Position numbers and translations under genes: made by a program. Positions 18,018 through 42,538 of a DNA stretch of 64,000 nucleotides are shown here, in pieces. The notes under the pieces are model-generated. The model saw nothing but the letters and a program-made list of their open reading frames with translations. It was not told where the DNA came from and searched no databases. The DNA comes from Candidatus Omnitrophota bacterium (GTDB taxonomy: Bacteria; Omnitrophota; Gorgyraeia; Pluralincolimonadales; Pluralincolimonadaceae), in the NCBI GenBank assembly GCA_003141835.1, contig PLNR01000011.1, positions 107,804-171,803 on the forward strand, written 5' to 3'. The number at the start of each line of letters is the position of its first letter. Position 1 is the stretch's first letter.

Positions 18018-18898
18018 TTCGCCGAAACGCCGGAGTAGTCATTCAATAAGTAATCCCTCAGCGCGTCCTTCCAGTTACGCATACCGTCAAGCCCGATCTC
18101 TTTCAGGCGAGAATTCTCCATGGCTTCTGACCGCCCCCTGGGAGCCGGCAACGGAAACACGGAAGAGCTTACCGGAACTATCTCGACTTTGTTCAGCCCC
18201 AGGATATTCTTGATTTCGAGCGCTATATCATATCGCGAAACCATCCCATGATTGGCCATGTGGTATAGCCCGGGGCTGCCTCTCTCTATCAACTTTCCGG
18301 TGCATGCCAGGAGATCCTTGGCATAAGTCAGGCTTCCGAATTTATCATTTACGGCCTTGATGGAATTGGATCCGGCCATCATGCGCGCTATCTTCCCGAC
18401 AAACTTAACATCCTTGCCGCCGCCACCCACCATCCATCCTGCTCGTATTATAAAATAATCTTTGAGCCGCGAAGCAATTATACCTTCGGCCTCAAGTTTA
18501 GTTTTACCATAAAAATTCAACGGCCCTGTCTTGTCCGCCTCTATATACGGAAGCGGTTTCGAACCGTCAAAAACCGCGGCGGAACTTAAAAATACAAGCT
18601 TCACCCCGTTATTCTTACAGGCTGACACGACGTTTTCCGTGCCCGTGACATTGACCTTACGAGCCCAATCCCTGTCAGTTTCACATCTATCAACATCCGT
18701 AGCGGCAGCGAGGTGCAGCACCAGGCCAGGAGAAGTTTTTTCTACCGCGATCATTACAGAATCGCGATCGCATATGTTTAAATCTGCCAAGTCGGTAAGT
18801 ATGCATTCGGCATCATTAAATACCTGTTTCACATAACTGCCGACCATGCCGGAACCGCCGGTAACCAAAATACGGGTTATGCTATTAATCTTCGGCAT
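18014..18898 (-). CDS. RmlD-like NAD(P)-dependent 4-ketosugar reductase (dTDP-4-dehydrorhamnose reductase family). Second copy in the window.
   Basis: VTGGSGMVGSY and HLAAATDVDRCETD resemble the RmlD substrate-binding region. 294 aa. Confidence 0.68.
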   Translation of the reverse strand: MPKINSITRILVTGGSGMVGSYVKQVFNDAECILTDLADLNICDRDSVMIAVEKTSPGLVLHLAAATDVDRCETDRDWARKVNVTGTENVVSACKNNGVKLVFLSSAAVFDGSKPLPYIEADKTGPLNFYGKTKLEAEGIIASRLKDYFIIRAGWMVGGGGKDVKFVGKIARMMAGSNSIKAVNDKFGSLTYAKDLLACTGKLIERGSPGLYHMANHGMVSRYDIALEIKNILGLNKVEIVPVSSSVFPLPAPRGRSEAMENSRLKEIGLDGMRNWKDALRDYLLNDYSGVSAK

Positions 18899-20370
18899 GA
18901 CGATATTCCTTTTTTTATCAGGCCCAAAGGATCGTTGAACATTTTGGCAGCAAGTTTCCTGGAAAATAATACAGGGTGTTTTTTATAAAATTCCATCTGG
19001 AGGTAGCTGTAGCCCTCTTCGAATATCTTTCTGACATCATCACCGCTCCATTTATCCGTGGAAATGGAACAGCTTGTGATATATAAGTTATCTAAAAATG
19101 ATTTTTCGTCGATATAGCCTTCCTTAAGGGACCTCGCGTAAAGCTCCGATCCGGGATAAGGCGTGGCCACGGAGACAAAAGGCTTGTAGATGCCGATTTT
19201 TTTTGCGAAATTGTAGCTGTCCCACATCTCGCCGACCGTCTCTCCGGGCATGCCTATTATAAGAAAAATGTTCGCATCAAGGCCTATGCTTTTCGCGTGC
19301 TTAATAAGGACTTCGACCTTTTTTAAATTAACGGGTTTTTTTATCACATCCCTAAGGACCCTTTCACTGCCCGACTCTACTGCAATATTAAGCTTGTAGC
19401 AGCCGGCCTCTTTCATTTTGTCGATAAGACCCTCGGTAAGCGCGAAAGCGGCGACGCCGTTAGGAGTATCCCATTTGAAATCCAGTTTTTCTTTTATCAT
19501 GAGATCGAATATCTCTTCGGCGCGGTTGACATCGAGGGTTACATTATCGTCTTCAAATAAAAGTTCCTCTATTTGATATTTTTCTTTAAGGTCCCTCATT
19601 TCTTCTATAACATTCATAGGGGATCTTTTCCTGAACGTCTTTCCCCACACATGATGGGCAGTGCAAAAACTGCAGCCCACCGGGCATCCTCGCGAGGTTA
19701 TAATGGGGGAAAATCTGCGGCACATCCTTTTGCCGTGCGACGCCTCCAGGCCAAAGTATTTCTCCATGCTTAATAAATGCCTTGCAGGGAAAGGGATGCT
19801 ATCGAGATCTTTAATAAACCGCTGTTTGGGAATAATTTTGATAATATCTTTATCCCTATATCCTATGCCGTCAAGGCTTGAGAGATCCGCCCTTCCTTCT
19901 ATAGCCCCTATTAAAGCTATCAGGCTCTCTTCTCCTTCGCCAAGCACAACGTAATCCACATTTTTGTCCGCCAATACATTCTCCGGCATCACCGTGGCAT
20001 GCGCCCCGCCAGCAATTACGATAATATCTTTACTGACATTTTTTGCAATCCTGTATATATCGTGAGCATTCCTTCTCTGCCTTGTAAAGAGATTATTTAC
20101 TCCTACGATATCAGGAGCGAAATTTCTTATAATACTTTCAATTTCGTCAATCCCCAGCCCGATCTTTATAATATTCTCCGCCACATCGGTCCTTGAGTCC
20201 CAGCCTTCTATCAGGCAATCGACGATTTTTACCTGAATACCGTTTTTTTCTAAAACACTTCCCAGATACGCAAGCCCAAGCGGAGGGAGCGGATTGATAT
20301 CTAATAAGTCCTTAAAGGTAAACGCGGATGGTGTAAAAAGAAGTATTTTTTTTATTTTTCTTTTAAGCAT
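18877..20370 (-). CDS. B12-binding (class B) radical SAM enzyme.
   Basis: N-terminal cobalamin-binding Rossmann region (PLPPLGLAYLGSVL…VKIVD) plus the CxxxCxxC motif TSRGCPVGCSFC. 497 aa. Confidence 0.85.
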   Translation of the reverse strand: MLKRKIKKILLFTPSAFTFKDLLDINPLPPLGLAYLGSVLEKNGIQVKIVDCLIEGWDSRTDVAENIIKIGLGIDEIESIIRNFAPDIVGVNNLFTRQRRNAHDIYRIAKNVSKDIIVIAGGAHATVMPENVLADKNVDYVVLGEGEESLIALIGAIEGRADLSSLDGIGYRDKDIIKIIPKQRFIKDLDSIPFPARHLLSMEKYFGLEASHGKRMCRRFSPIITSRGCPVGCSFCTAHHVWGKTFRKRSPMNVIEEMRDLKEKYQIEELLFEDDNVTLDVNRAEEIFDLMIKEKLDFKWDTPNGVAAFALTEGLIDKMKEAGCYKLNIAVESGSERVLRDVIKKPVNLKKVEVLIKHAKSIGLDANIFLIIGMPGETVGEMWDSYNFAKKIGIYKPFVSVATPYPGSELYARSLKEGYIDEKSFLDNLYITSCSISTDKWSGDDVRKIFEEGYSYLQMEFYKKHPVLFSRKLAAKMFNDPLGLIKKGISSCRRLIA

Positions 20371-23261: not shown

Positions 23262-24746
23262 TCATAACGCGCCTGAACGCAAAATTTTTAACCAAAAATC
23301 CGCGTAGATTATCGGTGTTATGACGAGTTCTTTGAGCAAAAAATCCAGGTAGGCGAGTTTTCTTTTGGACCTGAGCACTGCCATCCAATACTGTCGATCG
23401 GCTTTAAACATATTCATTTCGATAGGCGCATATATGCCATATTTAATCCACCAGCTATTGAGCAAAGTATTGAAATTGATATTGTGCTTCGACATCCTGT
23501 ACTCTTCCGGAGGATTAAGGCGGTCCAGCCTCCAATACTGCTCCTTGGGGATAGGAGCTTTTAAGTATTTATCATAAAAAGCGGTGCCGGGATAAGGCTG
23601 TGTAACTCCCACGGAAATATAGGTCGGCTTTATTCGCGCCAACAGCTTATAGGACATCTCCAGGTCATCTTCCGTTTCTCCGGGCAGATTAAGCAGCATA
23701 TTAGCAAAAGTCCTTATGTTGTATTTCCTGCATAAGGAAAAGGCGTTGACTATTTCGGGTATGCTTATCTTTTTGTTGATCGTTTCCAGTAATTTCGGTG
23801 AACCCGTCTCGACGCCGAAATCGAGCTGTATGCATCCCGCTTCTTTCATCATCCTTACGATCTTTTCGTTCTTTAGGCAGTTTACCCTTGTATCGGCGGC
23901 CCAGAGCATCCTTAACCCGCTTTTGCGGTAAGCATCGCAAAACTCTATTATGTCCGCCTCGGTCATCCCGAAAGTATCATCAAGGATATAAAAAAAATCG
24001 AAATGGTATTTATCCTGCAATATGCGCAATTCTTCCATTACGCGGGCCATCGGCCGCTTCCTGGCCAGGGGCGGGCCGCCAGGGACTTTATCCATGGCTT
24101 TCCATACCGCGTTCGAAGCGCAAAAACCGCAATTATAAGGGCATCCCCGCGATGTTTGTATTACGGCGGTAGACACTATCAACCGCCTTATGATAAGTTT
24201 TGTCGGTTTCGCGTTCCATTCCATATCTATCATGTGATAGGCAGGCATTCCGCATTCACTGAGATCCATGAACTCCCTGTTGCCGTTTATTTTAACTGCG
24301 CCGTTATCCAGGTACGCTATGCCCTTTATGCGGCTATTATCCTTATTCTCGTCATATTCTTTAAGGACCTGCTCCAGGGTAAGCTCCCCCTCCCCGCGGA
24401 CGACCAGGTCGAAAGGGCTGCCATCATATAAAAAATCCTGCGGAGAGACCGAAGGGTGCGCGTTCCCTACGATAATTTTTGAACCGGTCTCCTCTTTTAT
24501 CTTTTTCGCCAGCTCGACTATCGCGTTGTAGTCGGTCACAAATGCTGCCAGCCCAACATAGCGCGGCTTCTTTTCCTTTATTTCGCGCATTATGATGTTT
24601 ACATTCGCCTCGATACTTTTCTCATGCGGGTCGGCTATCCCGACCTTGAAACCCTTCTTTTCCAGGTATCCGGCCAGGTAGAGGTAATAGAACGGCATAT
24701 ACCTGCTTCTTGCGTTTGAGGGCGAAACTACGAATAGTATATCCAT
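23262..24746 (-). CDS. B12-binding (class B) radical SAM enzyme.
   Basis: N-terminal B12-binding-like domain with SRGCPYNCGFC. 494 aa. Confidence 0.85.
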   Translation of the reverse strand: MDILFVVSPSNARSRYMPFYYLYLAGYLEKKGFKVGIADPHEKSIEANVNIIMREIKEKKPRYVGLAAFVTDYNAIVELAKKIKEETGSKIIVGNAHPSVSPQDFLYDGSPFDLVVRGEGELTLEQVLKEYDENKDNSRIKGIAYLDNGAVKINGNREFMDLSECGMPAYHMIDMEWNAKPTKLIIRRLIVSTAVIQTSRGCPYNCGFCASNAVWKAMDKVPGGPPLARKRPMARVMEELRILQDKYHFDFFYILDDTFGMTEADIIEFCDAYRKSGLRMLWAADTRVNCLKNEKIVRMMKEAGCIQLDFGVETGSPKLLETINKKISIPEIVNAFSLCRKYNIRTFANMLLNLPGETEDDLEMSYKLLARIKPTYISVGVTQPYPGTAFYDKYLKAPIPKEQYWRLDRLNPPEEYRMSKHNINFNTLLNSWWIKYGIYAPIEMNMFKADRQYWMAVLRSKRKLAYLDFLLKELVITPIIYADFWLKILRSGAL

Positions 24747-24749
24747 GCC

Positions 24750-26285
24750 TCAGGCCTTGGCCAATTTGGCGAACAGGCCGTTGACATAGTCCCTGAAATA
24801 ACCGGAAAAAACATAATACAAGCATAAGGCGCCGAATGACGCCAGCCCTCCGGCGCATATCACGATCAACAGGTCCATCTTATTTTTATCGGCCGGCATG
24901 AACCTGCCTGCATAAGCCAGTACGCCCACTAAAAATAATGTGGGGATCACGGCAGGGCTGATGACCTTTTTAATGAGATCTACGGTTTTATATTTTAAAA
25001 AATCATTCATCAGGATAAAATACAGAACAGCGGAAACCGTGAACGCGATGAACTTAAACACTGCAAAAGCAAGTATGCCCATTGAAGAATAGGTCGCTAA
25101 TATCCCGCCCCAATAAATAATGACCGCGATAACGGCGATCGCGCCCATAGCTTTGACCCTTACCTGCGTCGTGACCAGGATGCCGGCTGGCTGGACGAAA
25201 AAATTATACACCCAGCTCATAACCAGGAATTGCGCTACCAGTATCGACGGTACATAATTAGCGCCTACCCAGCAAAGGATCACCGGCCTCATCAGAACCA
25301 CTATGCTGACTACGGGGAATACCACTAAAGGAAGAGTCAGGACGATAACGCTGTAGATGATCCTCCGCAGGCTTGCCATGTCATTTTGCCCCATAAAATG
25401 GTTAAAACGGGCCAGGAAGGGGCCGTAAATAACCCCGAGTATACCCCTGAAAAATCCCATGACGGTCAGCCCCACCGCATAGAGCGCGGCCATCTCCGCT
25501 CCGGATAATTTACCGATCGCAAACAGGTCCAATTCATAATAAAGTATGCAGACCAACGTAGTGAAAAAAGTGCCGAACGCGAGCCTTTTAGTCCGGTTAT
25601 AGATCTCTCCTGAAAACCTGAAAGACCTCGCCAGAAGGCCGAAATCGTAATGGTATTTGGCCTTTATGATGCCCAGGAAAATGATATTGGCTATTAATCC
25701 CGTGGACTGGTAAAACAGGAAATATCCCACGATATCATATTTGCTGCCGTTAAAAAAATAGAACACCGAACACACCCTCGCCAGGTTGACCAGGATGGAA
25801 AGCCTCTGGTAGATATAATCTTCCAGCCTTATGCCGAAGACTATCTGGCATAACTTTTGCAGGATGACGGTCGGCGAAAAGAGCGAAAGAATCAGTAATA
25901 ACCTTGAAGCGACGGCTATCTCCTTTGCGTCATTGAGATTTTTTATCAACAGATGGGGATCGAATGCGAAGACCAGGATGACCATCGAGAACAAGAGGAC
26001 GAAAATAAACAGGACAAAACTCACAAAACCGAGTATCCTTATCTCTTCCTTCAGGTCGTTAATGGCGAATTGCTCGCTTACGTATTTAAACGCGGCGCCC
26101 AAAAACCCGATATCCGCGTATGTCAGGAAAAAGGTGACTGAGACGCATATAGAATAGATGCCGTAGATCGCCGGGGCGCTGGTAAGTTTCGGTATCACTA
26201 TGAAAAGCGAAAGGAACCCGAGCAGGATCGAAATGCCTTGCCAGAGGTATATCTTTACATAATTTTTCGTATACGATTCTTGCAT
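24750..26285 (-). CDS. wzx: Oligosaccharide/polysaccharide flippase (Wzx, MOP superfamily).
   Basis: 511 aa with about 12-14 TM helices and a polysaccharide-biosynthesis-protein topology. Sits inside a glycosyltransferase cluster. Confidence 0.75.
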   Translation of the reverse strand: MQESYTKNYVKIYLWQGISILLGFLSLFIVIPKLTSAPAIYGIYSICVSVTFFLTYADIGFLGAAFKYVSEQFAINDLKEEIRILGFVSFVLFIFVLLFSMVILVFAFDPHLLIKNLNDAKEIAVASRLLLILSLFSPTVILQKLCQIVFGIRLEDYIYQRLSILVNLARVCSVFYFFNGSKYDIVGYFLFYQSTGLIANIIFLGIIKAKYHYDFGLLARSFRFSGEIYNRTKRLAFGTFFTTLVCILYYELDLFAIGKLSGAEMAALYAVGLTVMGFFRGILGVIYGPFLARFNHFMGQNDMASLRRIIYSVIVLTLPLVVFPVVSIVVLMRPVILCWVGANYVPSILVAQFLVMSWVYNFFVQPAGILVTTQVRVKAMGAIAVIAVIIYWGGILATYSSMGILAFAVFKFIAFTVSAVLYFILMNDFLKYKTVDLIKKVISPAVIPTLFLVGVLAYAGRFMPADKNKMDLLIVICAGGLASFGALCLYYVFSGYFRDYVNGLFAKLAKA

Positions 26286-26289
26286 ATAT

Positions 26290-28071
26290 TTATCTATTAA
26301 CCAGGTTATCGATCAGGCCCAGTATCTTCCCTTCCGTTCCTTCTTTATACATATAATGCTTATAAAAGGTATCGTCCCGTTTTTTCTCCAATTCGCCCTT
26401 CATGAAAAGATCGATCTTTGCGATGGCCTCAGCGGTATCTTCGCAATAATGGACGCGCCTTTTCAGTTCTTCGAGAGCCTTCGCCTCATACGGATTCAGC
26501 GGGTCGTCCATTAGGAATATCTCGGCATCAAGAGGTAAAACATCAAATAACGGCTGCGACGGGACCTCTATTAAAACGGCCTTGGGCGAGTATTCCAGGA
26601 GAAAATCGGTCAGGGATACGTTATCGACGACCTTTAAATTATTGAGCCTCTCAAAGACCGACCAGGCGGAGCAGTTCAGGTAACCGGAATCTATAAACGG
26701 TTTTATATAGATATCCCGCGATTTTAACGAATTGAGGTGTTCCAGAAGGGTTATCTGCCTTTCAACCACCATATCCGGGGAGATCCTGTCCATCCCGGAC
26801 TCAAACATGGAGATGCTCACCGTTATCGGGAACAGGAAGTCTATCTTCCTGGAAGCCTTTTCGTATTTTACTATTTTTGTTTTTCCTAACGGCAGGATCT
26901 CCGCTTTTATCTTTATCGAGGGATATACCCTCTCCAGGTCTTCCCTGGTAAATCCCCAGCTGATAAAATGATCGCACCTGTTAAAATCTGTTTCCACGTT
27001 CCACGGAGAAAGCGCTTCGCCGTAAAGGCAGCCGTGCTGCGAACCCACGACCTTTATGCCTTTTGACGATAAATATTCGAAGATCATGGCCCTTGACCTC
27101 CATGACGGAGAGACCCCCCATATCCCCAGGGAAACAGGATGTTTCATGTTGATCATCTCGATCGAACGAACGGCATTCAAATACCGGTTCCCGTTAGCCG
27201 CGAAGTCCTCCTCAATATTTTCCAAAAGGAGTTTCACGAACGGGTCGGTGTCGTCCTTGATAAAACCCTTGCTCCTGAGGTCCAAATTTACGTCATAAGT
27301 TAAGCGTTGCGTTCCGAATCCCAGAAATCCTTCTTCCCTGAAGTCATAATATAAAATATTATACTTATTTAAGCTGTTAACCAGGAATTCCAACTCATAT
27401 AAAGGCTCGCTTATCAATACGGTCTTCCTGTCATCGCGGAATCTCTTGAATCCATATTTATGGACGGCAACGGCTATTCCCTTTAATATAAACCTGAAAT
27501 TGCGGCCTTTCAGCCTCCTGAGCGCGTTCATTATCCTTTTCATCCCGCGCCCTGGTCCCGGGATATCCTTATCCGCCGGGATCTCTATGATATCGGTCCG
27601 GATGCCCGCAAAAAACAAAGGTACCAGGTCGCTTACGGAGGTACTTACATTTAAGAATTTATTAAACCTGTAATCATAAAACAATATCTTTTCCGGCTTA
27701 TGGACATCCGCCGCCCTTTTGACGCAATCCACGAACGTGGCGTATCCCAGCAGCTGCAGTCCGCAATAGAAAAAATATAACGGGGTAAAATAATCCAATT
27801 TGAGGTTAAACTTCTTATTCAATGACGGCGAAAGGCCGGAATCTAAATTTTTTAACAGGCCGCCTACCGTTTTTGCGCACTTCTCCCTCATGCTGATCAA
27901 TTCTTCGGTAGGCAGGAATCCGCTCAAACATTTACAATCCAGGCCGTGCTTTTCTTTAAGGTAAACATCTACGCTGGAATGCGTGGAAAAAAGCACATTG
28001 CCTTCGAAAAACTTATTTTCAACGCAGTGCCTCGCGTCGGATACGCTATGGAGAATGACGGCCGTTCTCAT
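26290..28071 (-). CDS. Large hypothetical protein (593 aa) with no recognisable family. Candidate novel glycosyltransferase or nonulosonate transferase.
   Basis: Uninterrupted ORF tightly packed between wzx and a radical SAM gene. No diagnostic motif found by eye. Confidence 0.5.
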   Translation of the reverse strand: MRTAVILHSVSDARHCVENKFFEGNVLFSTHSSVDVYLKEKHGLDCKCLSGFLPTEELISMREKCAKTVGGLLKNLDSGLSPSLNKKFNLKLDYFTPLYFFYCGLQLLGYATFVDCVKRAADVHKPEKILFYDYRFNKFLNVSTSVSDLVPLFFAGIRTDIIEIPADKDIPGPGRGMKRIMNALRRLKGRNFRFILKGIAVAVHKYGFKRFRDDRKTVLISEPLYELEFLVNSLNKYNILYYDFREEGFLGFGTQRLTYDVNLDLRSKGFIKDDTDPFVKLLLENIEEDFAANGNRYLNAVRSIEMINMKHPVSLGIWGVSPSWRSRAMIFEYLSSKGIKVVGSQHGCLYGEALSPWNVETDFNRCDHFISWGFTREDLERVYPSIKIKAEILPLGKTKIVKYEKASRKIDFLFPITVSISMFESGMDRISPDMVVERQITLLEHLNSLKSRDIYIKPFIDSGYLNCSAWSVFERLNNLKVVDNVSLTDFLLEYSPKAVLIEVPSQPLFDVLPLDAEIFLMDDPLNPYEAKALEELKRRVHYCEDTAEAIAKIDLFMKGELEKKRDDTFYKHYMYKEGTEGKILGLIDNLVNR

Positions 28072-29474
28072 GATGACTTAGCCGGAGAAGACCCGCGTGA
28101 TAAACCATCTTTGGGTTTTTGATATGTGACGGTCTTGAAAACGGAATCCAGCTTCAATCCCAAATGCACCGCTAATCTTCTCAGTTTCTCTTCAACGATC
28201 GAGACAAATTCATTATCCGGCATCCCGGTAAGGTTGACATGGAAATCCTGCCTGTCCCCTATCCTCTCCAGGTACCCGATCTCATCGGTTATGCGGCCGT
28301 TTTTCCTCGCCCAATCATATATCGGGGTGCCCGGCAAAGGCAGCAGAAAACCGACGCTTGGATACATCCGGCATTCCTCGCAAACCTCGATGGTGCGCTG
28401 GATAGTTTCAGGCGTTTCCTGCGGATAGCCGAAAATTACGCTTGTCAGGGGGGTGACGCCTCCATCCCACAGCGCCCTCGACTGCTCTATGATCTGCGGG
28501 ACCGAGATCTTTTTATTCATCGCGGACAGAATCCCGGGGTCGGCGTTCTCCAAAGAAAAAGCGATGTTCTCGCAACCGGCCTCTCTCATTCTCTTTATCA
28601 GGTCCAGGTCTTTCTTCTTGAAGAGATCTCCTCTCGAGGTGGCTTCCCATTTTATCTTAAAATCCAGGCTTTCTATTATCCCGACCATCTGCTCTACGCC
28701 TTTTATGTTAGGGAAGGTCAACTCGTCCCAAAAAGAAACGTAATTGCAATTGTACTTGCCGTGGAGCCTGTTAAGCTCCCCGGTGAAAGCCCCTTCGGAA
28801 TACCTCCTGTATTTCTCCCCTTTAAAAACATGGTAACAAAAAGTGCAGTTGAACGGGCATCCCCTCGCGTAATTCAACGGATACGACAGGGCTTTCTCCG
28901 AGGAAAAATTATTTACGTTTATATACCCGTATTCGTCATATTTGGCCAGTTCGAACAGGTCCCAATCGGGAAATCCGAAAACATCCAATGACGGCGCGAC
29001 AGGCCGTTTTTGCGTATAGACTATCCTGTCTCCATCCTTAAATACGATGCCTTCTACATCCGACAACGGGCTCTTCGCTTCTATCGCCTTCATGAGCTCT
29101 ACGACCGTTATGTCGCTTTCGCCCATGACAGCTATGTCAACCTTTGTATTTTTTAAGAGAAGTTCGGGGATAGATGTAGCGACGGAATTTCCCGCCATTA
29201 TAACGGCCTTGGGGTTAGTCTTTTTCACGATATCGGCAATCTGCCTAACCAGCTTGAACCCGGTCACTATGCATCCGAGGCCGTAAACATCGTAAGGCCT
29301 GCCGGCCAGGATCTTTTCCAAGTCGGAAATAGTGAGGTTGTTAATATCCATGTCTATAAGGTCGAATTCAAAGCCTGCTTTTTTTATTGCGGTCATTATA
29401 TAACCGAGGCCGACAGGAAGCTGCCTTCTTTTTGAACCTGGCCTTAGGGATGGATTAATAAAAACGATCTTCAT
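28068..29474 (-). CDS. B12-binding (class B) radical SAM enzyme.
   Basis: N-terminal LPVGLGYIMTAIKKAGFEFDLID (B12-binding-like) plus ARGCPFNCTFC. 468 aa. Confidence 0.85.
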   Translation of the reverse strand: MKIVFINPSLRPGSKRRQLPVGLGYIMTAIKKAGFEFDLIDMDINNLTISDLEKILAGRPYDVYGLGCIVTGFKLVRQIADIVKKTNPKAVIMAGNSVATSIPELLLKNTKVDIAVMGESDITVVELMKAIEAKSPLSDVEGIVFKDGDRIVYTQKRPVAPSLDVFGFPDWDLFELAKYDEYGYINVNNFSSEKALSYPLNYARGCPFNCTFCYHVFKGEKYRRYSEGAFTGELNRLHGKYNCNYVSFWDELTFPNIKGVEQMVGIIESLDFKIKWEATSRGDLFKKKDLDLIKRMREAGCENIAFSLENADPGILSAMNKKISVPQIIEQSRALWDGGVTPLTSVIFGYPQETPETIQRTIEVCEECRMYPSVGFLLPLPGTPIYDWARKNGRITDEIGYLERIGDRQDFHVNLTGMPDNEFVSIVEEKLRRLAVHLGLKLDSVFKTVTYQKPKDGLSRGSSPAKSS

Positions 29475-29481
29475 TCCCGCA

Positions 29482-30243
29482 TCAACTCCACCTGTGAAAA
29501 ATTATCATTGTCTCTTTTACTTCGTTGAAGCCGTTCTTAATATAGGTGTTTTGGGCGGAGACGTTCTTTGCCTGTGTCCCTACCGTGAGTTCCGTTGCCT
29601 GCAATTTTTTTGCGGCGTAGCGGAGCAAGGCCGAGCCGATCCCTTTTCCCTGAAATCTCTTTAAGACGGCTACGAAGAAAAGCCTGGAGCGCTTTCCGTC
29701 CCGGCTGACGTTGGCCAAGACCGCACCGGCTGTTTCATTGCGGAACTTGGCTATGAAGATGCGCCCGGCCTTCGAAGGCCTGAAGCATTTTATGTAATTT
29801 ATCCAGAGCAGGTCCGCTTTTTCTTTGGGGATACGGGTATCCGAATGGAACCTAGAATACCTGAAAACGCCCCCAAGCTCCTCACAGGGAAGGCCTTCGT
29901 TCTTTTTCAATTCAAGCACCTTTACGCCGGGCGCCAAGGACGGATCTTTTGCCTTCCCGCCGGCATATTTGAACGTGATCTCGGTATCTATGTAGGCGAA
30001 GCCCATAGTCTGTAAAAATGCTATCGATCCATTATCCGAATCTGCGGGGATCTTGACCGTCACGAAACTATTTTTGAGCTTACCGGCTGCCATGGCCCTT
30101 ATTTTAGCCGAAGGCACAAGTATGGAATTATCCGCGTCCAGGAGATAACAATCCCTCCCGAAGAAAACGGTATCCCATTCCAGGAACTTGAAATGATATA
30201 CGGCGCCGCCGGCTTTTAGCGTGATATCTTTAGAGGATGCCAT
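29482..30243 (-). CDS. GNAT-family acetyltransferase, candidate PseH-like N-acetyltransferase.
   Basis: FQGKGIGSALL acetyl-CoA loop. Lies immediately downstream of the PseG-like and PseI-like genes. 253 aa. Confidence 0.6.
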   Translation of the reverse strand: MASSKDITLKAGGAVYHFKFLEWDTVFFGRDCYLLDADNSILVPSAKIRAMAAGKLKNSFVTVKIPADSDNGSIAFLQTMGFAYIDTEITFKYAGGKAKDPSLAPGVKVLELKKNEGLPCEELGGVFRYSRFHSDTRIPKEKADLLWINYIKCFRPSKAGRIFIAKFRNETAGAVLANVSRDGKRSRLFFVAVLKRFQGKGIGSALLRYAAKKLQATELTVGTQAKNVSAQNTYIKNGFNEVKETMIIFHRWS

Positions 30244-31231
30244 CGATATAGTCCTTTATTTCCCTTGTCTTGAATACGGCGTTTGGCAGGCGGGTTAACG
30301 GGTCCCGTATACCTTCCAGCAACTTTTTTTCGTCGAAAGACCTGAACCCGAGGTATTTCGCCCAGCCCATTTTATCGAAGTACTCGCACCTGCCTATCTG
30401 GTGTTCGTGAATAGCGATGAGGACCGACGGCGTCCTTGTCGCGACAAGCTCGAAACTGGTAAGCCCGCCCGCGGAAACGGCTATATCGCAATTCATGAAC
30501 TCATCGAACATATTCGTTATATCCTGCTTTATCCTGTATTTAACGCCTGAATCCTTTAAGCTTCCGGCCAGCCCTTCCATGTGCCGGTATCCCCCGCCCA
30601 CGACCACATACAGCTCCAGACCTGTTTTTCCCCTGATAAGGGCATCTACCACTTTTTGGGTGAAATTATATTCATCGGCTCCGCCCATCGATACCAGCAA
30701 TACCTCCGGCTTGCTTTTATAAGACCTGTTACGGATCCTCGTGAAATCAAAATCAAGCGGCAGGACCGCGTACTGCGGCCCAAGAAGGAATTTGGTGCCG
30801 GGATATTTCTTTTGGTCAAACAGCTTATCCGTACCTACATCCCAGTTCACCACCAGTGACATGCCGTCAGGGATAATGCCGTCGAAATTGATGCAGGCCT
30901 TTACCGCGCGATTTGTGACCCCCTTGTATTCCGTCAAGGGCCTTTCCGTTATTTCAAAGAAGGCCGCGTCGATCCCCCGGGACTCGATGTAACCATTTAT
31001 CTCTTCCGTTTCCTTCCCGATCGAATGCGGCCCTATGATAGCTAGATAATTATTTATCTTGTTCCTCTTTACTATTTCGACGGACTCATCATAATCCCTG
31101 ATGATAAAGTGAGATTCCCAGCCGTCATTCTCGAAATAGCGCGACAGGTGGATAAGCGAAACGAGGTCGCCGGTGCCTATCGACTGCTTCGCGTCGGCCC
31201 TGAAAAGCACTTTTTTTGTCACAGTATGCAA
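30230..31231 (-). CDS. pseG: PseG-like UDP-sugar hydrolase (UDP-2,4-diacetamido-2,4,6-trideoxy-beta-L-altropyranose hydrolase family, MurG-like fold).
   Basis: KVLFRADAKQSIGTG near the N-terminus, LVSMGGAD, and C-terminal DIAVSAGGLTSFEL match the conserved PseG blocks. 333 aa. Confidence 0.68.
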   Translation of the reverse strand: MHTVTKKVLFRADAKQSIGTGDLVSLIHLSRYFENDGWESHFIIRDYDESVEIVKRNKINNYLAIIGPHSIGKETEEINGYIESRGIDAAFFEITERPLTEYKGVTNRAVKACINFDGIIPDGMSLVVNWDVGTDKLFDQKKYPGTKFLLGPQYAVLPLDFDFTRIRNRSYKSKPEVLLVSMGGADEYNFTQKVVDALIRGKTGLELYVVVGGGYRHMEGLAGSLKDSGVKYRIKQDITNMFDEFMNCDIAVSAGGLTSFELVATRTPSVLIAIHEHQIGRCEYFDKMGWAKYLGFRSFDEKKLLEGIRDPLTRLPNAVFKTREIKDYIDGIL

Positions 31232-32289
31232 TCCCAGGTTATCGGGTCCTCGAAAAAGATATCTTTCTTTGCGGTGACCTTATTAGCCTTGAAAAGATCC
31301 AGGTATTTAGGCTCTAACCCGCGTTTTTTCTTCCCCGGCCTTAAGATCTCTATATCGGACGGCCCTATCCTCCGGCCTGCTTTTATGTCCTTGTTGGCGA
31401 AAAGCGCCATGTAAGCGAAATCCCTGAGGTATTTTTCCTTCTCGCCGGTGGTCTTCGCGCTGCTGCCGTAGATGAGCTTATCTATCCTGCATTTTCCTGC
31501 TTTAAGGCCGGATCCGGCCTTCCGTATCGCGGCGACCATCTCTTTCAGTTCATCCGGTTCCAGCGCAAAAAAATGGTCCGGCCCTTTCATCCTTTTATCA
31601 AGGGTTATGTGCTTTTCTATCACCCTGGCACCGAGATATACCGCCTGGACCGGGGCCGCGCAGGCCTCTTTGGTATGGTCAGAGTATCCTATCTCGAGGT
31701 CCGGAAAAGCCGACCCAAGGGTCCTGATAACCCCCAAATTACATTCCCTGAGGTCGGTGGGGTAAGCTATGGAGCAATGCAGCAGGGTGAGTTTATCGTG
31801 ATAACGCTTTACGGTGCTTACCGCATCCTCTACCTCCCCGAGCGTCGCCCCGCCGGTCGAGAGGAAGATCCTGAACCGCTTTTTTGCGCAATATTCAATG
31901 AACGGTATGTTGGTAACGGCATAAGAAGGGATCTTTATCGACCTTAACCCTCCGGCGATCAGCATATCCAGGCATGATCTGTCTGAAGCCGAACACAGGA
32001 AATCGATCTTCTTTTTCTTGCAATAGGCCGTCAACTTGCCTATCCAGGCGCGCGGCATCTCAAAACGGGCCGAGGCCTCATATATATCGTAGGAATACTT
32101 CTTGTCGTTATCGGTCCAGTCGAGCCTCCCTGCGCTTTTCGGATAGAGATATTTTGCCTTGAACAACTGGAACTTTGCCGCGTCGCATCCGGCCTCAGCA
32201 GCCGAATCGATAAGCCTGAAACAATTTTCGAGCAGGCCATTATGGTTTATCCCGATCTCGGCTATTATATATACTTTATTTTTCATCAA
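31219..32289 (-). CDS. pseI: Nonulosonic acid synthase (NeuB/PseI/LegI family), most likely pseudaminic acid synthase.
   Basis: YIIAEIGINHNGLLE…AKFQ TIM-barrel N-terminus and a C-terminal SAF domain. 356 aa. Confidence 0.82.
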   Translation of the reverse strand: MMKNKVYIIAEIGINHNGLLENCFRLIDSAAEAGCDAAKFQLFKAKYLYPKSAGRLDWTDNDKKYSYDIYEASARFEMPRAWIGKLTAYCKKKKIDFLCSASDRSCLDMLIAGGLRSIKIPSYAVTNIPFIEYCAKKRFRIFLSTGGATLGEVEDAVSTVKRYHDKLTLLHCSIAYPTDLRECNLGVIRTLGSAFPDLEIGYSDHTKEACAAPVQAVYLGARVIEKHITLDKRMKGPDHFFALEPDELKEMVAAIRKAGSGLKAGKCRIDKLIYGSSAKTTGEKEKYLRDFAYMALFANKDIKAGRRIGPSDIEILRPGKKKRGLEPKYLDLFKANKVTAKKDIFFEDPITWDCIL

Positions 32290-34171
32290 AATTTTTCCTG
32301 AACCAAAGCTCGAGGTTTATCAGCTGCCACAAGAACATCTGGTGGTCCTTGCCGCCTGCCAAATGCTCGTCGTATATCGCGTTCAATCTATCGACCTTAA
32401 AAATACCCCTGCTTTTTACGGATGGTGAATTGATCAGGTCGTATAACTCCCGCCTGTTCGTGGTCCTGAACCATTCGTTGGCGGGTGCTATGAAACCCGC
32501 CTTATCCTTCCTTGTCCTTACTTTCTCCGGTAATACGCCCTTCATGGACTCGCGCAACAGCCATTTCCCCAGGCCGCGGCGTATCTTGAACTTGTTGGGC
32601 AGCGAAAAACAGAACTCCGCAAGCCGGTAATCCAAAAACGGGGACCTCGACTCTATGGACTGGGACATCGTGTTCCTGTCCTCAGGCCTCAATGAGGCGG
32701 GTATCGTCTCGAACATCATCTCCGAATACAGCCGTTTTGATAAAAGGCTGCTGTAAGGGTTAGGCCAATGTATATCCCTCTTATGCCTGGATACTATATC
32801 CGCGTTAAAACATTCCGAGTAATCCGGGAACCTGCTCATTTCGCTGGTCTTGTTATCCACCAGCCGGCCGATATATTCTTTATACTTGTCTATCTCTGAA
32901 ATATCCCTGCCGTGGTTCTCCTTCCAAGTTTTCAACTCTTCCTGCAAAGATACGGCCTCGCCCTTCTGTTCCAGGTCATAAAAATTATAATGATAATGGT
33001 CCCAGTAGCCGGCAAGGAGCTCATCGCCGCCGTGGCCGTTTAACACGACCGGCGTCCTTTCGAGCTTCACTTTCTTGGCGATCAGGTAAAGGCTGTACCA
33101 GGTGACCGTGCATACCGGTTCGTCATGGTAACCCAACATCTCGTTTATGGTGCCAAAGAGATCCGCCGGGTCAGGCCTGATATAATGAAAATCGGCGTTC
33201 GTTTCTTTTATGACCGAATCGATGTACTCGCTCTCATCGTAAACGCCTTTTTTCTCGCCTGTGATCCCGGAGAACGCCACGATCGGTTTTTTCAGGATCT
33301 TGTAAGCGATACTGGTGATGGAAGTCGAATCCAACCCTCCGCTGAGCATGCATCCGACAGGGACATCGCTTCTCAGCCTTAACTTGACTGAATCGACCAG
33401 CAGGGCCTTAAACCTGTCTATCGCTTCGCCGTCGGATATCCCGCTCCTGTCCTCGGACGGGCGCAGCTGCCAATAATGATCCGTCCTGCATCCGAGGTTT
33501 TCATCGATCTCCATAAATGAGCTTTTGGGCACTTGGGAGATGCCGCTGAAATACGAATCCGCATCAACGTCTACATATCTGTAATTTGCCGCGATATACC
33601 TGTATATCTTGTCGTAATTCGGCTCTTTGACGGCCTTCGGGTGCTTCAAGATCCCTTTTATCTCAGAAGCGAATATAAGTTCGTTCCCGTTCTTTTGGTA
33701 ATAAAGCGGTTTTTTACCGAACCTGTCCCTCGACAATATTACTTTTTTACGTTTCTTGTCAAAGATCGCCAAAGCCCACATCCCGTTAAACCGCTCAAAA
33801 CACTCGGTCCCCCACTTCCCGTAGGCCTTAAGCACGACTTCCGTATCGCTCGTAGAGACGAACCGGCATCCGGCGCGGCCCAGTTCTTCCTTAAGCTCAA
33901 GATAATTATAGACCTCGCCGTTAAAGGTGATCGCTGCCCCGGTCTCGGGATCGACCATCGGCTGGCGGCCGGTTTCGGTAAGGTCGATGATCTTAAGCCT
34001 CCTGTGGCCGAATGCGACAAAACCGCCGTTCTTGCCGCTAAAGTCCGAAAAGATACCGCACCCGCTGCCGTCAGGGCCGCGGTGCGACTGCGCATCGGTC
34101 ATATTCTTGATCGTTGATGCCAGGTCGTAATCCGGCTTACGTATGCCGATAACGCCAGCTATGCCGCACAT
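32276..34171 (-). CDS. Asparagine synthase (glutamine-hydrolysing) family amidotransferase. Paralogue 2 of 3.
   Basis: MCGIAG N-terminus and SGGLDST PP-loop. 631 aa. Clearly paralogous to the gene at 128..2029. Confidence 0.88.
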   Translation of the reverse strand: MCGIAGVIGIRKPDYDLASTIKNMTDAQSHRGPDGSGCGIFSDFSGKNGGFVAFGHRRLKIIDLTETGRQPMVDPETGAAITFNGEVYNYLELKEELGRAGCRFVSTSDTEVVLKAYGKWGTECFERFNGMWALAIFDKKRKKVILSRDRFGKKPLYYQKNGNELIFASEIKGILKHPKAVKEPNYDKIYRYIAANYRYVDVDADSYFSGISQVPKSSFMEIDENLGCRTDHYWQLRPSEDRSGISDGEAIDRFKALLVDSVKLRLRSDVPVGCMLSGGLDSTSITSIAYKILKKPIVAFSGITGEKKGVYDESEYIDSVIKETNADFHYIRPDPADLFGTINEMLGYHDEPVCTVTWYSLYLIAKKVKLERTPVVLNGHGGDELLAGYWDHYHYNFYDLEQKGEAVSLQEELKTWKENHGRDISEIDKYKEYIGRLVDNKTSEMSRFPDYSECFNADIVSRHKRDIHWPNPYSSLLSKRLYSEMMFETIPASLRPEDRNTMSQSIESRSPFLDYRLAEFCFSLPNKFKIRRGLGKWLLRESMKGVLPEKVRTRKDKAGFIAPANEWFRTTNRRELYDLINSPSVKSRGIFKVDRLNAIYDEHLAGGKDHQMFLWQLINLELWFRKNFDEK

Positions 34172-34516
34172 CTATCGTTCTTTCCACTCGTCAAGCCAGC
34201 AGATTATCCTGTTATCCTGTCCCGTCTTCAGGTATTTTCTGAACTCCTTCATCTTTTCCTTTTCGACGGCATGGACATATAACTGGTGCCTCTCATTGAC
34301 GACGAGGGCAACCTTGAAACCCTCCTTTTTGAGCCTGCTGTTCAGGGAAGGGCCCAGGTAGAAACCCCAATCTTTGGCGGCAAAATCGCATTCCTTCCCG
34401 CTTTTCGTGACGAAGGATACCATCTCGCCGTCGTTGAGATATATCTTCCCGAGATCCTTTACTTTATGGCCCTTCACCTCAAAGACCCTCGGCGTTCTCT
34501 TGAATTTGGTTTTCAT
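34172..34516 (-). CDS. Small hypothetical protein (~114 aa).
   Basis: The ORF is wedged with zero spacing between an AsnB paralogue and the PseA-like gene. The internal ATG at 34516 gives an ATGA overlap. No recognisable motif. Confidence 0.38.
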   Translation of the reverse strand: MKTKFKRTPRVFEVKGHKVKDLGKIYLNDGEMVSFVTKSGKECDFAAKDWGFYLGPSLNSRLKKEGFKVALVVNERHQLYVHAVEKEKMKEFRKYLKTGQDNRIICWLDEWKER

Positions 34517-35631
34517 TTCCAATCCCGTCCTTTTACCAGAAAATCCTTTATCATCCACCTGCCGTTATCTTTCGACCATATCCTGCGGTTACGGAAATGT
34601 TCTTCGATCTCATGGAAACGGGCCAGGGAGATCCCCAAGAACGCGCACAGCCTGCGGATATCCCCATGCGGGACCTGGGGCCCTGTTTTCGCGATAACGC
34701 CGATTGCCCTTTCCCTCGTCATCCTGCCGTTGCGTATCTCGACCGAGAGGTTATCGAACAGCCTCGTAAAGCCGAACTTAAGCCATTTAAAATAATGGTG
34801 GACCGAGATGAAGTCGCAATCGATATCCGCATAGTCGTAATACCCTAATTTCGGTGCGCCGGGCCTGTTCTTGAACCCGTTCTCACGCGCTACCCTGTAA
34901 GTCTCCTGCGGGTCCCAGGGGATATAAAACCCTAAAAATATTGACTCGATCTTCTTTTCGCTGAATTCTTTGCCGCTTGGCAAAAAATACGGCTCAAGGC
35001 CTTTTCTTGTAAGGTCCCTGCCGACCCAATCCGCCGCCGAAGTCCCCTGCAATATCCCGTGGCGGTTGAACCAGCCCATGTCCAGCCTGTCGCGGTCCCT
35101 GTCCTTCTCAGGCCCGCCGTACTCCATGTGCGGGCTTTCGCCCCACACGACCAGCGGAATATTTAAACGGACCGCTATTTTTAAAGGGATGCTGAATAGC
35201 GCCATATGCATCGGGACTGCGGTGCTTCCCGTCTTTACAAGCGCCTTGTACATAAAGCGCCTTTCTATTTCCGGGTCGATGGAATAATCTATATGGTCGA
35301 CTCCCAGCCGGATGATGTTATCAAGGTTCTCCTGCCCCAATTCCGTCCTCGCCGGGGTCCTCCAGGTTACGGCCAGGATACGCAGCCCGTATTCCAGGCA
35401 TTTAACCACCTGCCAGGTGCTGTCCTTGCCTCCGCTTACCGGGACTATGCAATCATAACCGCCGGCCCTCGATCTCGCCTTACGGATGATCGCGGACAAT
35501 TCTTTCTTTCTTTTTGCCCAATCGATCGTCGCCTTATATTCATGCCCACGGCATGCCGAACAAACGCCATCCGGGCCGATCGTCAAACCCGGCCTTGTAT
35601 CCGGCAAGACACACTTAGCGCAATATCTCAT
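34513..35631 (-). CDS. N-acetyl sugar amidotransferase (PP-loop ATP-pyrophosphatase, WbuX/LfnA/PseA family), predicted to form an acetamidino sugar.
   Basis: N-terminal Zn-ribbon (CAKC…CSAC) followed by the PP-loop VPVSGGKDST. 372 aa. Confidence 0.7.
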   Translation of the reverse strand: MRYCAKCVLPDTRPGLTIGPDGVCSACRGHEYKATIDWAKRKKELSAIIRKARSRAGGYDCIVPVSGGKDSTWQVVKCLEYGLRILAVTWRTPARTELGQENLDNIIRLGVDHIDYSIDPEIERRFMYKALVKTGSTAVPMHMALFSIPLKIAVRLNIPLVVWGESPHMEYGGPEKDRDRDRLDMGWFNRHGILQGTSAADWVGRDLTRKGLEPYFLPSGKEFSEKKIESIFLGFYIPWDPQETYRVARENGFKNRPGAPKLGYYDYADIDCDFISVHHYFKWLKFGFTRLFDNLSVEIRNGRMTRERAIGVIAKTGPQVPHGDIRRLCAFLGISLARFHEIEEHFRNRRIWSKDNGRWMIKDFLVKGRDWK

Positions 35632-36261
35632 CTAAGTTCTTTCCTTGATCTTGACGGCCGGCACTCCCGCCAAAACTGAATTTTTTCCATACCTGCCCTC
35701 CCTTACAAGCGCCTTTGCGCCGACAACGCACCCATCCTCAAGGACCGCACCTTTCATGATCGCCGCGTTAGCCGCTATCCAGACATCGTTGCCGATGGAT
35801 ATCTTACCGTAAGTGTGTTTCTGGTCCTTTATCAGGGCGCCTTTACCGAAACCGTGCTGCGACGACTGTATGAAGATCATCCCTGAAATAAGGCAATCCT
35901 CTCCGATCGTGACATCCGTGCCGCAGTTAAAAAGGCAATATGGGCCGATCGAGGTGCGCTTGCCTATTTTTAAAATGGCGTCATTAGCCGAAACGAACCT
36001 GCAATCGTTATCTATCGCGACCCCGTCTTCGATGACTATCCTGCCGTTCTCCCTGTTCCTTATGTCTATGTCCCCGAAGATAGAGACGTTATCGCCTATC
36101 GAGATGTTGCGCGGATCACCTCTTAATTTCAATTTAGGGATGCCCTCTATGTAAAAATTCTTACCGACACGGATGCCATAGATCTTCAGTATGCTCTTGA
36201 TCACCCAGCTGTGGAAATAGCAGTATTTCTTGTTAGTTACCAGCGCGAGAAAATCAGGCAT
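35632..36261 (-). CDS. Hexapeptide-repeat (LbH) acyl/acetyltransferase.
   Basis: Multiple [LIV]Gxx hexapeptide turns (IGDNVSIFGDIDI…VIEDGVAIDNDC…). 209 aa. Confidence 0.7.
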   Translation of the reverse strand: MPDFLALVTNKKYCYFHSWVIKSILKIYGIRVGKNFYIEGIPKLKLRGDPRNISIGDNVSIFGDIDIRNRENGRIVIEDGVAIDNDCRFVSANDAILKIGKRTSIGPYCLFNCGTDVTIGEDCLISGMIFIQSSQHGFGKGALIKDQKHTYGKISIGNDVWIAANAAIMKGAVLEDGCVVGAKALVREGRYGKNSVLAGVPAVKIKERT

Positions 36262-39250: not shown

Positions 39251-40392
39251 CCCCTTAATAGTTCTTTCAAGTGCCCTGTGACATATCCCGCGTCTTTTAC
39301 CGTCATCGAGGAGAACATCGGGATCGATAATATCTCGTTAAAGATCTTGTTGGCTACGGGAAAATCTCCCGCGCAGAACCTCTTTTTGTAATAGCTGTGC
39401 ATATGGAGAGGTATGTAATGGACGCTGGTCCCTATGTTCCTTTTCTTGAGCTCGATTATCAGGCTGTCCCTCTCCTGCCCCGAAGAGCCGGTCTTTATCA
39501 TGAACAAATGGTAATTGTGGAAGTGCTCGTCCGAATCTTTTGTAAAACCTGCCAAACCGTCCAATTCCTTACGGTAGAACGCCGCGAGCTTCCTGCGTTT
39601 CGCGAGCATCCGGTCGAGTTTCTTTAGCTGCACCAGCCCTATGGCCGCGTGGAGGCTGTCGAGGTTATATTTATATCCCTTCTCTTCGATGTCGTAGAAC
39701 CAGTTGCCGGTCTTGCCGTATCGTTTAAATGCCTGCTTATTAATGCCGAAATAACTTTTTTTCCGTATGCTCTCTATGAGATCCTTATTCCTCGATACCA
39801 CGAGGCCGCCCTCGCCCATGGCCAGGTTCTTTGTAGCGTAAAAACTGAAAACGGCGACGTCCGAGAAATTGCCGATCTTTTTACCGAAGTAGCGCGTCCC
39901 GATGGCATGGGCGGCGTCTTCGATCACCTTCAGGCCGTGCCTTTGCGCCAATTTATTTATCCCGTCTATATCGCAGGGGTATCCCGCTATATGGACCGGG
40001 ATTATCGCCTTGGTCCTTGAAGTGACGAGCCGCGAGGCTTTCTCGAGATCAATGTTCAGCGAATCTTCCTCCACGTCGCAAAGCACAAGTTTCGCGCCCA
40101 CCCAATCGACCACCTGCGCGGTAGCGGCAAAAGTCCATGTCGGGACGATCACCTCGTCGCCGGGCCCGATACCCAGCGCCTCAAGCGAAAGATGGAGGCC
40201 TGCGGTGCAGGAATTTAACCCAACGGCATAGAGCTGTTCCGGGCCTTTCAGGTAATCGACGATTTTGTCTTCAAATTCGGTGACTTTCGGGCCGGTCGTC
40301 CACCAGCCTGACCGCAAGACCGCCGCGGCGGCCTTCACCTCCTCATCCGAAACTTCAGGCCTCGAAAACGGAAGGAAATCTTTCCTTATCAT
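39247..40392 (-). CDS. DegT/DnrJ/EryC1/StrS-family PLP-dependent sugar aminotransferase (ArnB/PseC-like).
   Basis: FLPFSRPEVSDEEVKAAAAVLRSGWWTTGP N-terminus and a conserved lysine region. 381 aa. Confidence 0.85.
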   Translation of the reverse strand: MIRKDFLPFSRPEVSDEEVKAAAAVLRSGWWTTGPKVTEFEDKIVDYLKGPEQLYAVGLNSCTAGLHLSLEALGIGPGDEVIVPTWTFAATAQVVDWVGAKLVLCDVEEDSLNIDLEKASRLVTSRTKAIIPVHIAGYPCDIDGINKLAQRHGLKVIEDAAHAIGTRYFGKKIGNFSDVAVFSFYATKNLAMGEGGLVVSRNKDLIESIRKKSYFGINKQAFKRYGKTGNWFYDIEEKGYKYNLDSLHAAIGLVQLKKLDRMLAKRRKLAAFYRKELDGLAGFTKDSDEHFHNYHLFMIKTGSSGQERDSLIIELKKRNIGTSVHYIPLHMHSYYKKRFCAGDFPVANKIFNEILSIPMFSSMTVKDAGYVTGHLKELLRG

Positions 40393-42535: not shown

Positions 42536-42538
42536 ATT

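Follow-up and report, generated by a model that had tools for sequence, protein, structure and literature searches.

A divergent LIC12162-family protein with a predicted GT-B fold as a candidate nonulosonate transferase in a glycan operon of Candidatus Omnitrophota

Results and Discussion

We analyzed a 593-amino-acid (aa) protein encoded in a stretch of 64,000 nucleotides (nt), hereafter the window, from contig PLNR01000011.1 of a Candidatus Omnitrophota bacterium (assembly GCA_003141835.1). The protein belongs to the LIC12162 family, is predicted to adopt the GT-B glycosyltransferase (GT) fold, and has relatives that are nearly always encoded beside genes for sialic-acid-like nonulosonic acids. 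In our judgment it is somewhat likelier than otherwise to be a membrane-peripheral transferase that takes a nonulosonate from its cytidine monophosphate (CMP)-activated form and acts before the glycan is flipped across the membrane. To our knowledge, no step in the bacterial synthesis of sialic-acid-like glycans is less well understood than the one carried out by the transferases for pseudaminic acid (Pse) and legionaminic acid (Leg). A first-pass annotation of the window had put the protein forward as a candidate glycosyltransferase or nonulosonate transferase, and this reading is the one best supported by our data, with the donor deduced from context only.

A 593-codon open reading frame (ORF) runs from ATG to TAA exactly at positions 26290–28071 of the minus strand, as confirmed by the ORF listing and the translation. 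Because 28 full-length homologues with 36–64% identity align with it end to end, the ORF is a real gene. Its start overlaps the stop of the gene for a B12-binding radical SAM enzyme (B12-rSAM) by 4 nt (ATGA), and the two genes are translationally coupled through this overlap. On the other side, a spacer of 4 nt separates its stop from the gene for a 511-aa protein with a weak match to the MOP-flippase model NF007773 (E 3.6e-6), in agreement with the original placement between a Wzx flippase and a B12-rSAM. The protein also looks cytoplasmic, as had been described, with no transmembrane (TM)-like window and a grand average of hydropathy of −0.17. The gene is part of a minus-strand series that is unbroken from the left window edge to ~50 kb and in which nearly all genes have sugar-nucleotide, glycosyltransferase, methyltransferase or export functions; this series is a glycan operon. 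Beyond ~52 kb, housekeeping genes follow (an LptD-like protein, ROK, GGDEF, ABC, AccD, DnaJ and DnaK).

Family membership and homologues

The first-pass annotation regarded the protein as an orphan in which no motif could be recognized. The orphan status has to be given up. The protein matched the NCBIfam model TIGR04331 (“LIC12162 family transferase”) at an E-value of 3.6e-9 and 35.9 bits, compared with a curated cut-off of 225 bits, and the match was colinear, with residues 327–477 on positions 319–467 of the 585-position profile. A precomputed match to the Pfam family PF27859 (“LIC12162”) is on record for exactly this protein, and a HMMER search against 1.84 billion representative proteins returned 483 clusters (50% identity) at E ≤1e-3, with 244 at ≤1e-30. 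Most of the 150 listed representatives were 570–620 aa long and matched the profile end to end. As to motifs, the earlier statement held for our local Pfam-A copy, in which the protein was unmatched, and failed for NCBIfam. The PF27859 assignment is a stored record from a model absent from that local copy; it is also recorded for 26 of the 28 listed homologues and marked “weak” for one protein (P0025). In a local Pfam-A scan of the 28 close homologues at E-values up to 10, every Pfam family matched at most one member. A second homologue search with a broader profile returned the same 29 proteins and no additional named distant relatives, and tblastn against 72,556 plasmids gave no match. A phage RNA polymerase that appeared in the PDB search (E 0.22) was rejected as spurious.

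LIC12162-like proteins are a small but genuine family. The 593-aa protein is a PF27859 member and a sub-threshold relative of TIGR04331. Eight further sampled family members scored ≤22.5 bits against TIGR04331 or did not match it, and since these likewise miss the cut-off, the protein falls into a divergent sister clade of the catalogued TIGR04331 family and is not an equivalog. It is therefore as a divergent member that the protein is new; the LIC12162 family itself is already catalogued by NCBIfam and Pfam. The word “transferase” in the TIGR04331 name is annotation only. In the literature that we searched, the family was mentioned solely for Herbaspirillum, where a bona fide LIC12162-family gene adjoins neuABC and its product was proposed, without experiment, as an N-acetylneuraminic acid (Neu5Ac) transferase (PMC6679464).

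Predicted fold and conserved residues

Structure prediction, which had been suggested as a check, came out in favour of a glycosyltransferase. The predicted model has the arrangement of a GT-B fold, in which two Rossmann-like domains face each other and the C-terminal helices cross back. Both Rossmann halves are predicted to lie within the C-terminal 320 residues (residues 271–593; Table 1), and they are preceded by an extra N-terminal domain with conserved residues at D12, T30, H31, D77, F95 and Y99.

A low-confidence segment of the model (residues 163–216) varies in sequence and keeps its positive charge. Its net charge is +11 in the 593-aa protein, +7.8 on average in the family and at least +4 in 58 of 67 members, in comparison with a whole-protein mean of +3.1. 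The helix at residues 173–189 is amphipathic, with a hydrophobic moment of 1.67 against 1.51 at the 95th percentile of the protein. Cationic amphipathic segments are typical of peripheral GT-B enzymes that work on lipid-linked acceptors, such as MurG, PimA and TagF, and residues 163–216 may likewise form a membrane-interface anchor.

Residue conservation was assessed in an alignment of 67 members with 22–50% identity. The GxQHG motif is conserved at 91% (G), 96% (Q), 90% (H) and 93% (G), and H346 is a candidate catalytic base. Further along the chain lies a motif around C366 and the invariant G373, a stretch that doubled as the search pattern by which related loci were recovered. The pair K457-P458 seems to occupy the place of the (K/R)xHP motif described for CMP-dependent GT-B enzymes (PMC12887879), with the His absent here. 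D515 is conserved in 93% of members, E517 in 79% (with D in a further 13%) and R539 in all 67; D515/E517 and R539 may be ligands of a nucleotide, phosphate or carboxylate. Other conserved positions are W318-G-x-x-P, Q439, S505 and K564-R565-D566. Taken as a set, these residues speak for an active enzyme and against a scaffold.

Genomic neighbourhoods of relatives

We next consider 19 distinct loci with useful flanks, drawn from genomes, from metagenomes and from contigs that carry exact homologues; a metagenome scan with the close alignment yielded eight loci. These loci were read either by searching with the neighbouring proteins of the window or from precomputed Pfam annotation. The family hidden Markov model found one copy per locus, including the window, and no paralogues. 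A NeuB/PseI-type synthase gene lay within 10 kb of the relative in 12 of the 19 loci, and a NeuB, CTP_transf_3 or PseG-like gene in 15, so the co-occurrence analysis that had also been suggested supported the proposal. By a rough estimate that was not computed, far fewer than 1% of random genes would be expected to have a NeuB neighbour. In the three positive loci without NeuB, the gene found was for a CMP-ulosonate cytidylyltransferase (L004/L014, L025) or was PseG-like (L012). PseG-like genes were present in the window, L006, L010, L012, L013, L016 and L024, and the gene downstream of the family member in L009 scores 499 bits, above the cut-off of 475, and is a bona fide LegB. In L014, NeuB is missing and the set consists of an aldolase, SIS and CTP_transf_3. 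The family member is located inside the biosynthesis block, between NeuB and CTP_transf_3, in L023–L025, and a nonulosonate gene is its immediate neighbour in L005, L019 and L025.

The carriers include Omnitrophota, Nitrospirota (Magnetominusculus), Planctomycetia, Desulfobacula, Geobacteraceae, Sulfurimonas and a gammaproteobacterium, and the family spans at least six phylum-level bacterial lineages. Because the carriers are so diverse, the nonulosonate association persists across very different genomes. No known sialyl- or nonulosonate-transferase family was found in the Pfam-annotated loci (the window, L014, L023, L024 and L025). A multi-TM flippase-like protein is encoded directly downstream of the family member in the window, L007, L008, L011 and L018, and the one in L007 matches Polysacc_synt.

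A B12-rSAM gene stands directly upstream in eight of the 19 loci. Those of L003, L006, L009, L016 and L017 are orthologues with 44–77% identity by tblastn, and those of L023 and L025 were recognized by Pfam annotation only. In four measured loci, the rSAM orthologues share 63–77% identity compared with 40–50% for the LIC12162-like protein. The B12-rSAM is a conserved partner of the family member in a subclade.

One relative, P0126 (1627 aa), is a fusion of a LIC12162-like domain (residues 1–576), a TIGR04326 “surface carbohydrate biosynthesis” module (917–1154), a GT2 domain (1198–1380) and TPR repeats, a combination that characterizes glycan-assembly enzymes acting in several steps. The TIGR04326 module carries QHATVP and LKPHP motifs. 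Homology between this module and the LIC12162 family was considered and rejected as undetectable (hhalign probability 0.1%), and no PDB relatives of the module were found. By eye only, its QHATVP, LVAFP and LKPHP resemble the GxQHG, ILFP and VKP of the family.

As a separate observation, in Ca. Magnetominusculus (L007, 10001–13301) and a Nitrospirota metagenome-assembled genome (MAG; L008, 1307–4598) the gene for the family member overlaps that for a Polysacc_synt flippase. The neighbours of these two genes are unrelated (an AMP-binding/acyltransferase protein, a CHASE2 cyclase and a DNA methylase), and no nonulosonate gene lies within 10 kb, which makes the pair an exception to the nonulosonate association.

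The nonulosonate block of the window

Upstream of the B12-rSAM gene lies a block of genes (Table 1) that appears, from its family matches, to be a pathway for a CMP-activated 5,7-diamino nonulosonate of the Pse/Leg kind, and the product probably carries an acetamidino group. The claim that the locus makes a Pse-type sugar stood in part. PseG-like, PseC-like, NeuB-like, GNAT and CMP-transferase genes are all there; none of them reaches its equivalog cut-off, and a PseB-type dehydratase was not found in the block. The pathway looks non-canonical, with no textbook Pse route.

The claim that known transferases are missing was borne out: among ORFs of at least 150 aa, the whole window has no GT42, GT52, GT80, GT38, Maf or Capsule_synth domain. 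The remaining transferases of the window are four GT4-type enzymes (Glycos_transf_1/Glyco_transf_4), two GT2 enzymes and PMT_2/GT-C types, and none of the other genes of the window is in a family with a known use of CMP-ulosonates. Genes of the TagD, TarI or TarJ type and for CDP-glycerol or CDP-ribitol synthesis were likewise absent from the window, where CTP_transf_3 is the sole cytidylyltransferase.

Comparison with known enzymes

Experimental support for Pse/Leg transfer has been obtained only for Maf, KpsS1 (GT118) and the TagB-like enzymes of Tannerella (PMC12887879, PMC5420450). By its proposed mode of action, the 593-aa protein is closest to the GT-B enzymes of the TagB/TagF type, and it also resembles the sialyl and Kdo transferases that depend on CMP (PMC12887879). 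None of these families includes it, because it has no profile match, neither the HP nor the D/E-D/E-G motif, and no sequence link to a solved structure. With the catalogued LIC12162 family it shares its length (593 aa against a 585-position model) and the habitat of O-antigen and nonulosonate loci (PMC6679464).

The TagF/TarL/TagB-like CDP-alditol phosphotransferases share the GT-B core and use a CMP leaving group, as is proposed here. TarL (559 aa) is of similar length, likewise has an extra N-terminal region and is 8% identical to the 593-aa protein. The motifs WHG, YAPT and KxHP of the TagF family, which we presume to resemble QHG, LFPxT and VKP here, are a lead only. Within this group, genetics has proven that TagB-like GT-B enzymes of Tannerella transfer Pse and Leg: nonulosonate addition in T. 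forsythia depends on Tanf_01245 and TFUB4_00887, which are encoded beside the genes for CMP-Pse/Leg (PMC5420450). They are ~445 aa long and have DXD, D/E-D/E-G and HP motifs (PMC5420450), whereas the LIC12162-like family lacks D/E-D/E-G and HP.

A GT-B-derived fold and the proposed CMP-ulosonate donor class are also shared with GT38, GT52, GT80, GT99 WbbB, GT107 KpsC, GT118 KpsS1 and GT140 KrkA. Where these ulosonate and sialyltransferases have (K/R)xHP, following the second C-half strand, the 593-aa protein has a conserved Lys-Pro, and they lack its extra 270-residue N-terminal domain. For the retaining enzymes among them (GT99, GT107, GT118 and GT140; Capsule_synth), neither the (K/R)xHP motif nor structural similarity to WbbB/KpsC was found in the 593-aa protein. 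The GT38, GT52, GT80 and GT42 profiles gave no Pfam match in the protein and matched at most one of the 28 members, the Glyphos_transf profile (PF04464) matched 0 of 28, and no MAF_flag10 domain occurs in the protein or anywhere in the window. The UDP-GlcNAc 2-epimerases, including the hydrolysing NeuC/LegG, are nonulosonate-pathway enzymes as well and are ~230 residues shorter. Neither the Epimerase_2 profile, against which the true epimerase of the window scores 349 bits, nor PseG TIGR03590 matched the 593-aa protein.

Proposed function and alternative explanations

In our proposal, a di-N-acyl nonulosonic acid of the Pse/Leg type, probably bearing an acetamidino group, is synthesized and activated with CMP by the products of the neighbouring genes. 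The CMP-sugar would be bound by the C-terminal Rossmann half, with K457, S505, D515/E517, R539 and R565 as candidate ligands, and the N-half would supply the acceptor site and probably the catalytic base, H346 of the Q-H-G motif. The cationic amphipathic residues 163–216 would keep the enzyme at the inner membrane face, where the nonulosonate would be added to an oligosaccharide linked to undecaprenyl diphosphate. Once complete, the unit would leave through the flippase whose gene starts 4 nt downstream.

The proposal is supported by the neighbourhoods of relatives, which include both Pse-type loci with PseG-like genes and the LegB locus L009, and by the lack of a known competitor transferase family in the window or the annotated loci. 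Several other observations support it: the fusion of the family domain to a GT2 glycosyltransferase in P0126, the coupling to the flippase together with a multi-TM protein directly downstream in at least five loci, the conserved charge of the cationic amphipathic segment, and the TIGR04331/PF27859 membership. The Herbaspirillum proposal and the TagB-like enzymes of Tannerella point the same way. A number of results weigh against this assignment. The protein does not reach the TIGR04331 cut-off, and PDB sequence searches with the single protein, a 28-sequence profile and a 67-sequence profile gave no usable match. The motifs D/E-D/E-G and HP are conserved in bacterial sialyltransferases (Freiberger 2007, cited in PMC5420450 and PMC7439481), and among the 67 members no column has [DE][DE]G in five or more, and HP occurs in at most seven at any column. 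Four of the 19 loci (L007, L008, L017 and L018) have no nonulosonate gene within 10 kb, and no experiment or assay on any LIC12162-family member was found in the literature searched.

An alternative, which we consider unlikely, is that the protein is a GT-B glycan-assembly transferase for another donor, either an alditol phosphate as in TagF/TarL or a nucleoside diphosphate (NDP)-sugar, and that the nonulosonate genes merely share its locus. TarL ranks first and UDP/GDP-sugar GT-B enzymes score almost equally in the comparison, and the four loci without a nonulosonate gene would fit. However, the window has no genes for CDP-glycerol or CDP-ribitol synthesis and its only cytidylyltransferase is of the CMP-ulosonate type, Glyphos_transf matches none of the 28 members, and NDP-sugars are already served in the window by the four GT4-type and two GT2 enzymes. 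Moreover, the association is specific to NeuB, CTP_transf_3 and PseG across distant phyla and in otherwise differing loci, often as immediate neighbours.

Still less probable is a GT-B-fold enzyme of the nonulosonate pathway that is no transferase, for example a nucleotide-sugar hydrolase, a hydrolysing 2-epimerase of the NeuC/LegG/PseG kind or another modifier of sugar nucleotides. Epimerases and hydrolases are found within the GT-B superfamily too. The Foldseek ranking is in its favour, as is the position of the gene within biosynthesis blocks in L023–L025, and the pathway has steps to assign, given its sub-cut-off genes and the missing PseB-type dehydratase. Yet the Epimerase_2 and PseG models match no member, hhalign gave non-significant probabilities of 0.4% against the 2-epimerase and 0.15% against the PseG-like protein of the window, and a separate PseG-like gene coexists with the family member in the window, L006, L010, L013, L016 and L024. 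The ~230 additional residues, the cationic membrane-type segment, the flippase coupling and the GT2 fusion in P0126 also count against such a role. We give very little credence to a non-catalytic partner, that is, a scaffold presenting substrate to the upstream B12-rSAM or an adaptor of the flippase. The 4-nt overlap with the rSAM gene, its recurrence upstream in eight of the 19 loci and its better conservation would suit such a partner, but over half of the loci have no such rSAM (among them L004, L005, L010, L011, L012, L013, L019 and L024), and Q345, H346, D411, Q439, K457, D515, R539 and R565 are conserved at 90–100% down to 22% identity, as residues of an active site would be.

Other features of the glycan cluster

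The coordinates of the features are listed in Table 1.

Table 1. Features of the 593-aa protein, its neighbours and the nonulosonate block. Positions are those of the window except in the last five rows, which use the coordinates of the respective loci.
Feature	Position	Strand	Basis or remarks
LIC12162-like 593-aa coding sequence	26290–28071	−	stop codon 26290–26292; homologues, PF27859, TIGR04331
Extra N-terminal alpha/beta domain, residues 1–270 (predicted)	27262–28071	−	long helical hairpin (helices 55–88, 95–124)
Cationic low-confidence segment, residues 163–216	27424–27585	−	pLDDT (per-residue model confidence) 46–66
Complete GT-B core, residues 271–593 (predicted)	26293–27261	−	N-half ~311–400, C-half ~405–545, then C-terminal helices
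G343-x-Q345-H346-G347 motif	27031–27045	−	after second strand of GT-B N-half
R-C366-D-x-[FY]-x-S371-[YW]-G373-F motif	26950–26979	−	G373 invariant; conserved among 67 members
D411-I-L-F-P415	26827–26841	−	first strand of GT-B C-half; model strand 408–415; D 91%, P 85%
K457-P458	26698–26703	−	after second strand of C-half; K 90%, P 78%
D515-x-E517 ... R539	26455–26529	−	acidic pair and invariant arginine in C-half
MOP/Wzx-type flippase, 511 aa, downstream neighbour	24750–26285	−	13 TM-like windows; NF007773
B12-binding radical SAM enzyme, upstream neighbour	28068–29474	−	Pfam B12-binding and Radical_SAM
CMP-nonulosonate biosynthesis block	29482–41926	−	Pfam and NCBIfam scans
GNAT	29482–30243	−	
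PseG-like	30230–31231	−	E 2e-29; 103 bits against cut-off 154
NeuB-type synthase	31219–32289	−	282 bits NeuB, 215 bits PseI, both under cut-off
AsnB-like	32276–34171	−	
Small ORF	34172–34558	−	
WbuX N-acetyl-sugar amidotransferase	34513–35631	−	325 bits, above cut-off
Hexapeptide acyltransferase	35632–36261	−	
AsnB-like	36254–37930	−	
NDP-sugar-dehydrogenase-like	37931–39250	−	matches Pfam C-terminal domain only
PseC-like aminotransferase	39247–40392	−	355 bits against cut-off 423
rSAM/SPASM	40389–41243	−	
CTP_transf_3 cytidylyltransferase	41237–41926	−	
B12-rSAM upstream gene, L003	8622–10004		
B12-rSAM upstream gene, L006	8598–9983		
B12-rSAM upstream gene, L016	6520–7902		
B12-rSAM upstream gene, L017	8622–9998		
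B12-rSAM upstream gene, L023	8614–10008		

Several further features of the cluster were observed. It contains three B12-binding radical SAM paralogues (28068–29474, 23262–24746 and 18877–20370), of which the first could C-methylate the nonulosonate or its acyl groups. The four genes at 37931–41926 are also conserved as a block in a Desulfobacula MAG (L010, 679–4732). A small conserved ORF of 114–128 aa without a family match always follows WbuX (34172–34558 in the window; L006, 4410–4760; L011, 5041–5418; L023, 5269–5613); because it occupies the place of the HisH/HisF-like partners in L014, it may be an unrecognized partner subunit. Three AsnB-like glutamine amidotransferases are encoded in the cluster (128–2029, 32276–34171 and 36254–37930). 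The type at 32276 co-travels with the LIC12162-like gene in L006, L011, L017 and L018 at 50–63% identity; a possible role is the amidation of a uronic acid or of the carboxylate of the nonulosonate.

The interval 42026–43150 separates the UDP-sugar genes from the nonulosonate block and encodes a paralogue of NusG/UpxY-like antiterminators (169 aa) and a winged-helix regulator (203 aa); the presence of this pair within the cluster suggests locus-specific transcription antitermination. The distal end of the cluster encodes two PMT_2 membrane proteins (GT-C-like, of the ArnT/PMT type) of 472 aa (4312–5730) and 519 aa (6744–8303). The first-pass annotation had named the 472-aa protein as a second candidate for the transferase; this suggestion finds no support here, the protein being PMT_2/GT-C-like, 20 kb away and without any link to nonulosonate transfer.

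Implications

The idea of a nonulosonate transferase would in itself not surprise glycobiologists, and the donor is not proven here. A family of ~500 clusters that occurs in nonulosonate loci, has a confident GT-B model and shows few invariant residues is nevertheless a concrete target for tests. If the proposed function is true, the catalogued PF27859 and TIGR04331, and with them the genes of Leptospira and Herbaspirillum, would gain a functional assignment, CAZy would gain a family, and chemoenzymatic pseudaminylation or legionaminylation would have another enzyme at its disposal. Should the protein act in the pathway instead, a gap in a seemingly non-canonical nonulosonate route would be closed.

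More tentatively, the divergent LIC12162-like clade could be a new CAZy family of CMP-nonulosonate (Pse/Leg-derivative) transferases that lack the HP and D/E-D/E-G motifs and have an extra N-terminal domain, with a subclade paired with a cobalamin radical SAM enzyme that modifies, probably by methylation, the nonulosonate or the acceptor at the transfer step. Were both the new family and this pairing true, uncultured anaerobes of the Omnitrophota, Nitrospirota and Desulfobacterota would gain previously unseen modified sialic-acid-like sugars on their surfaces.

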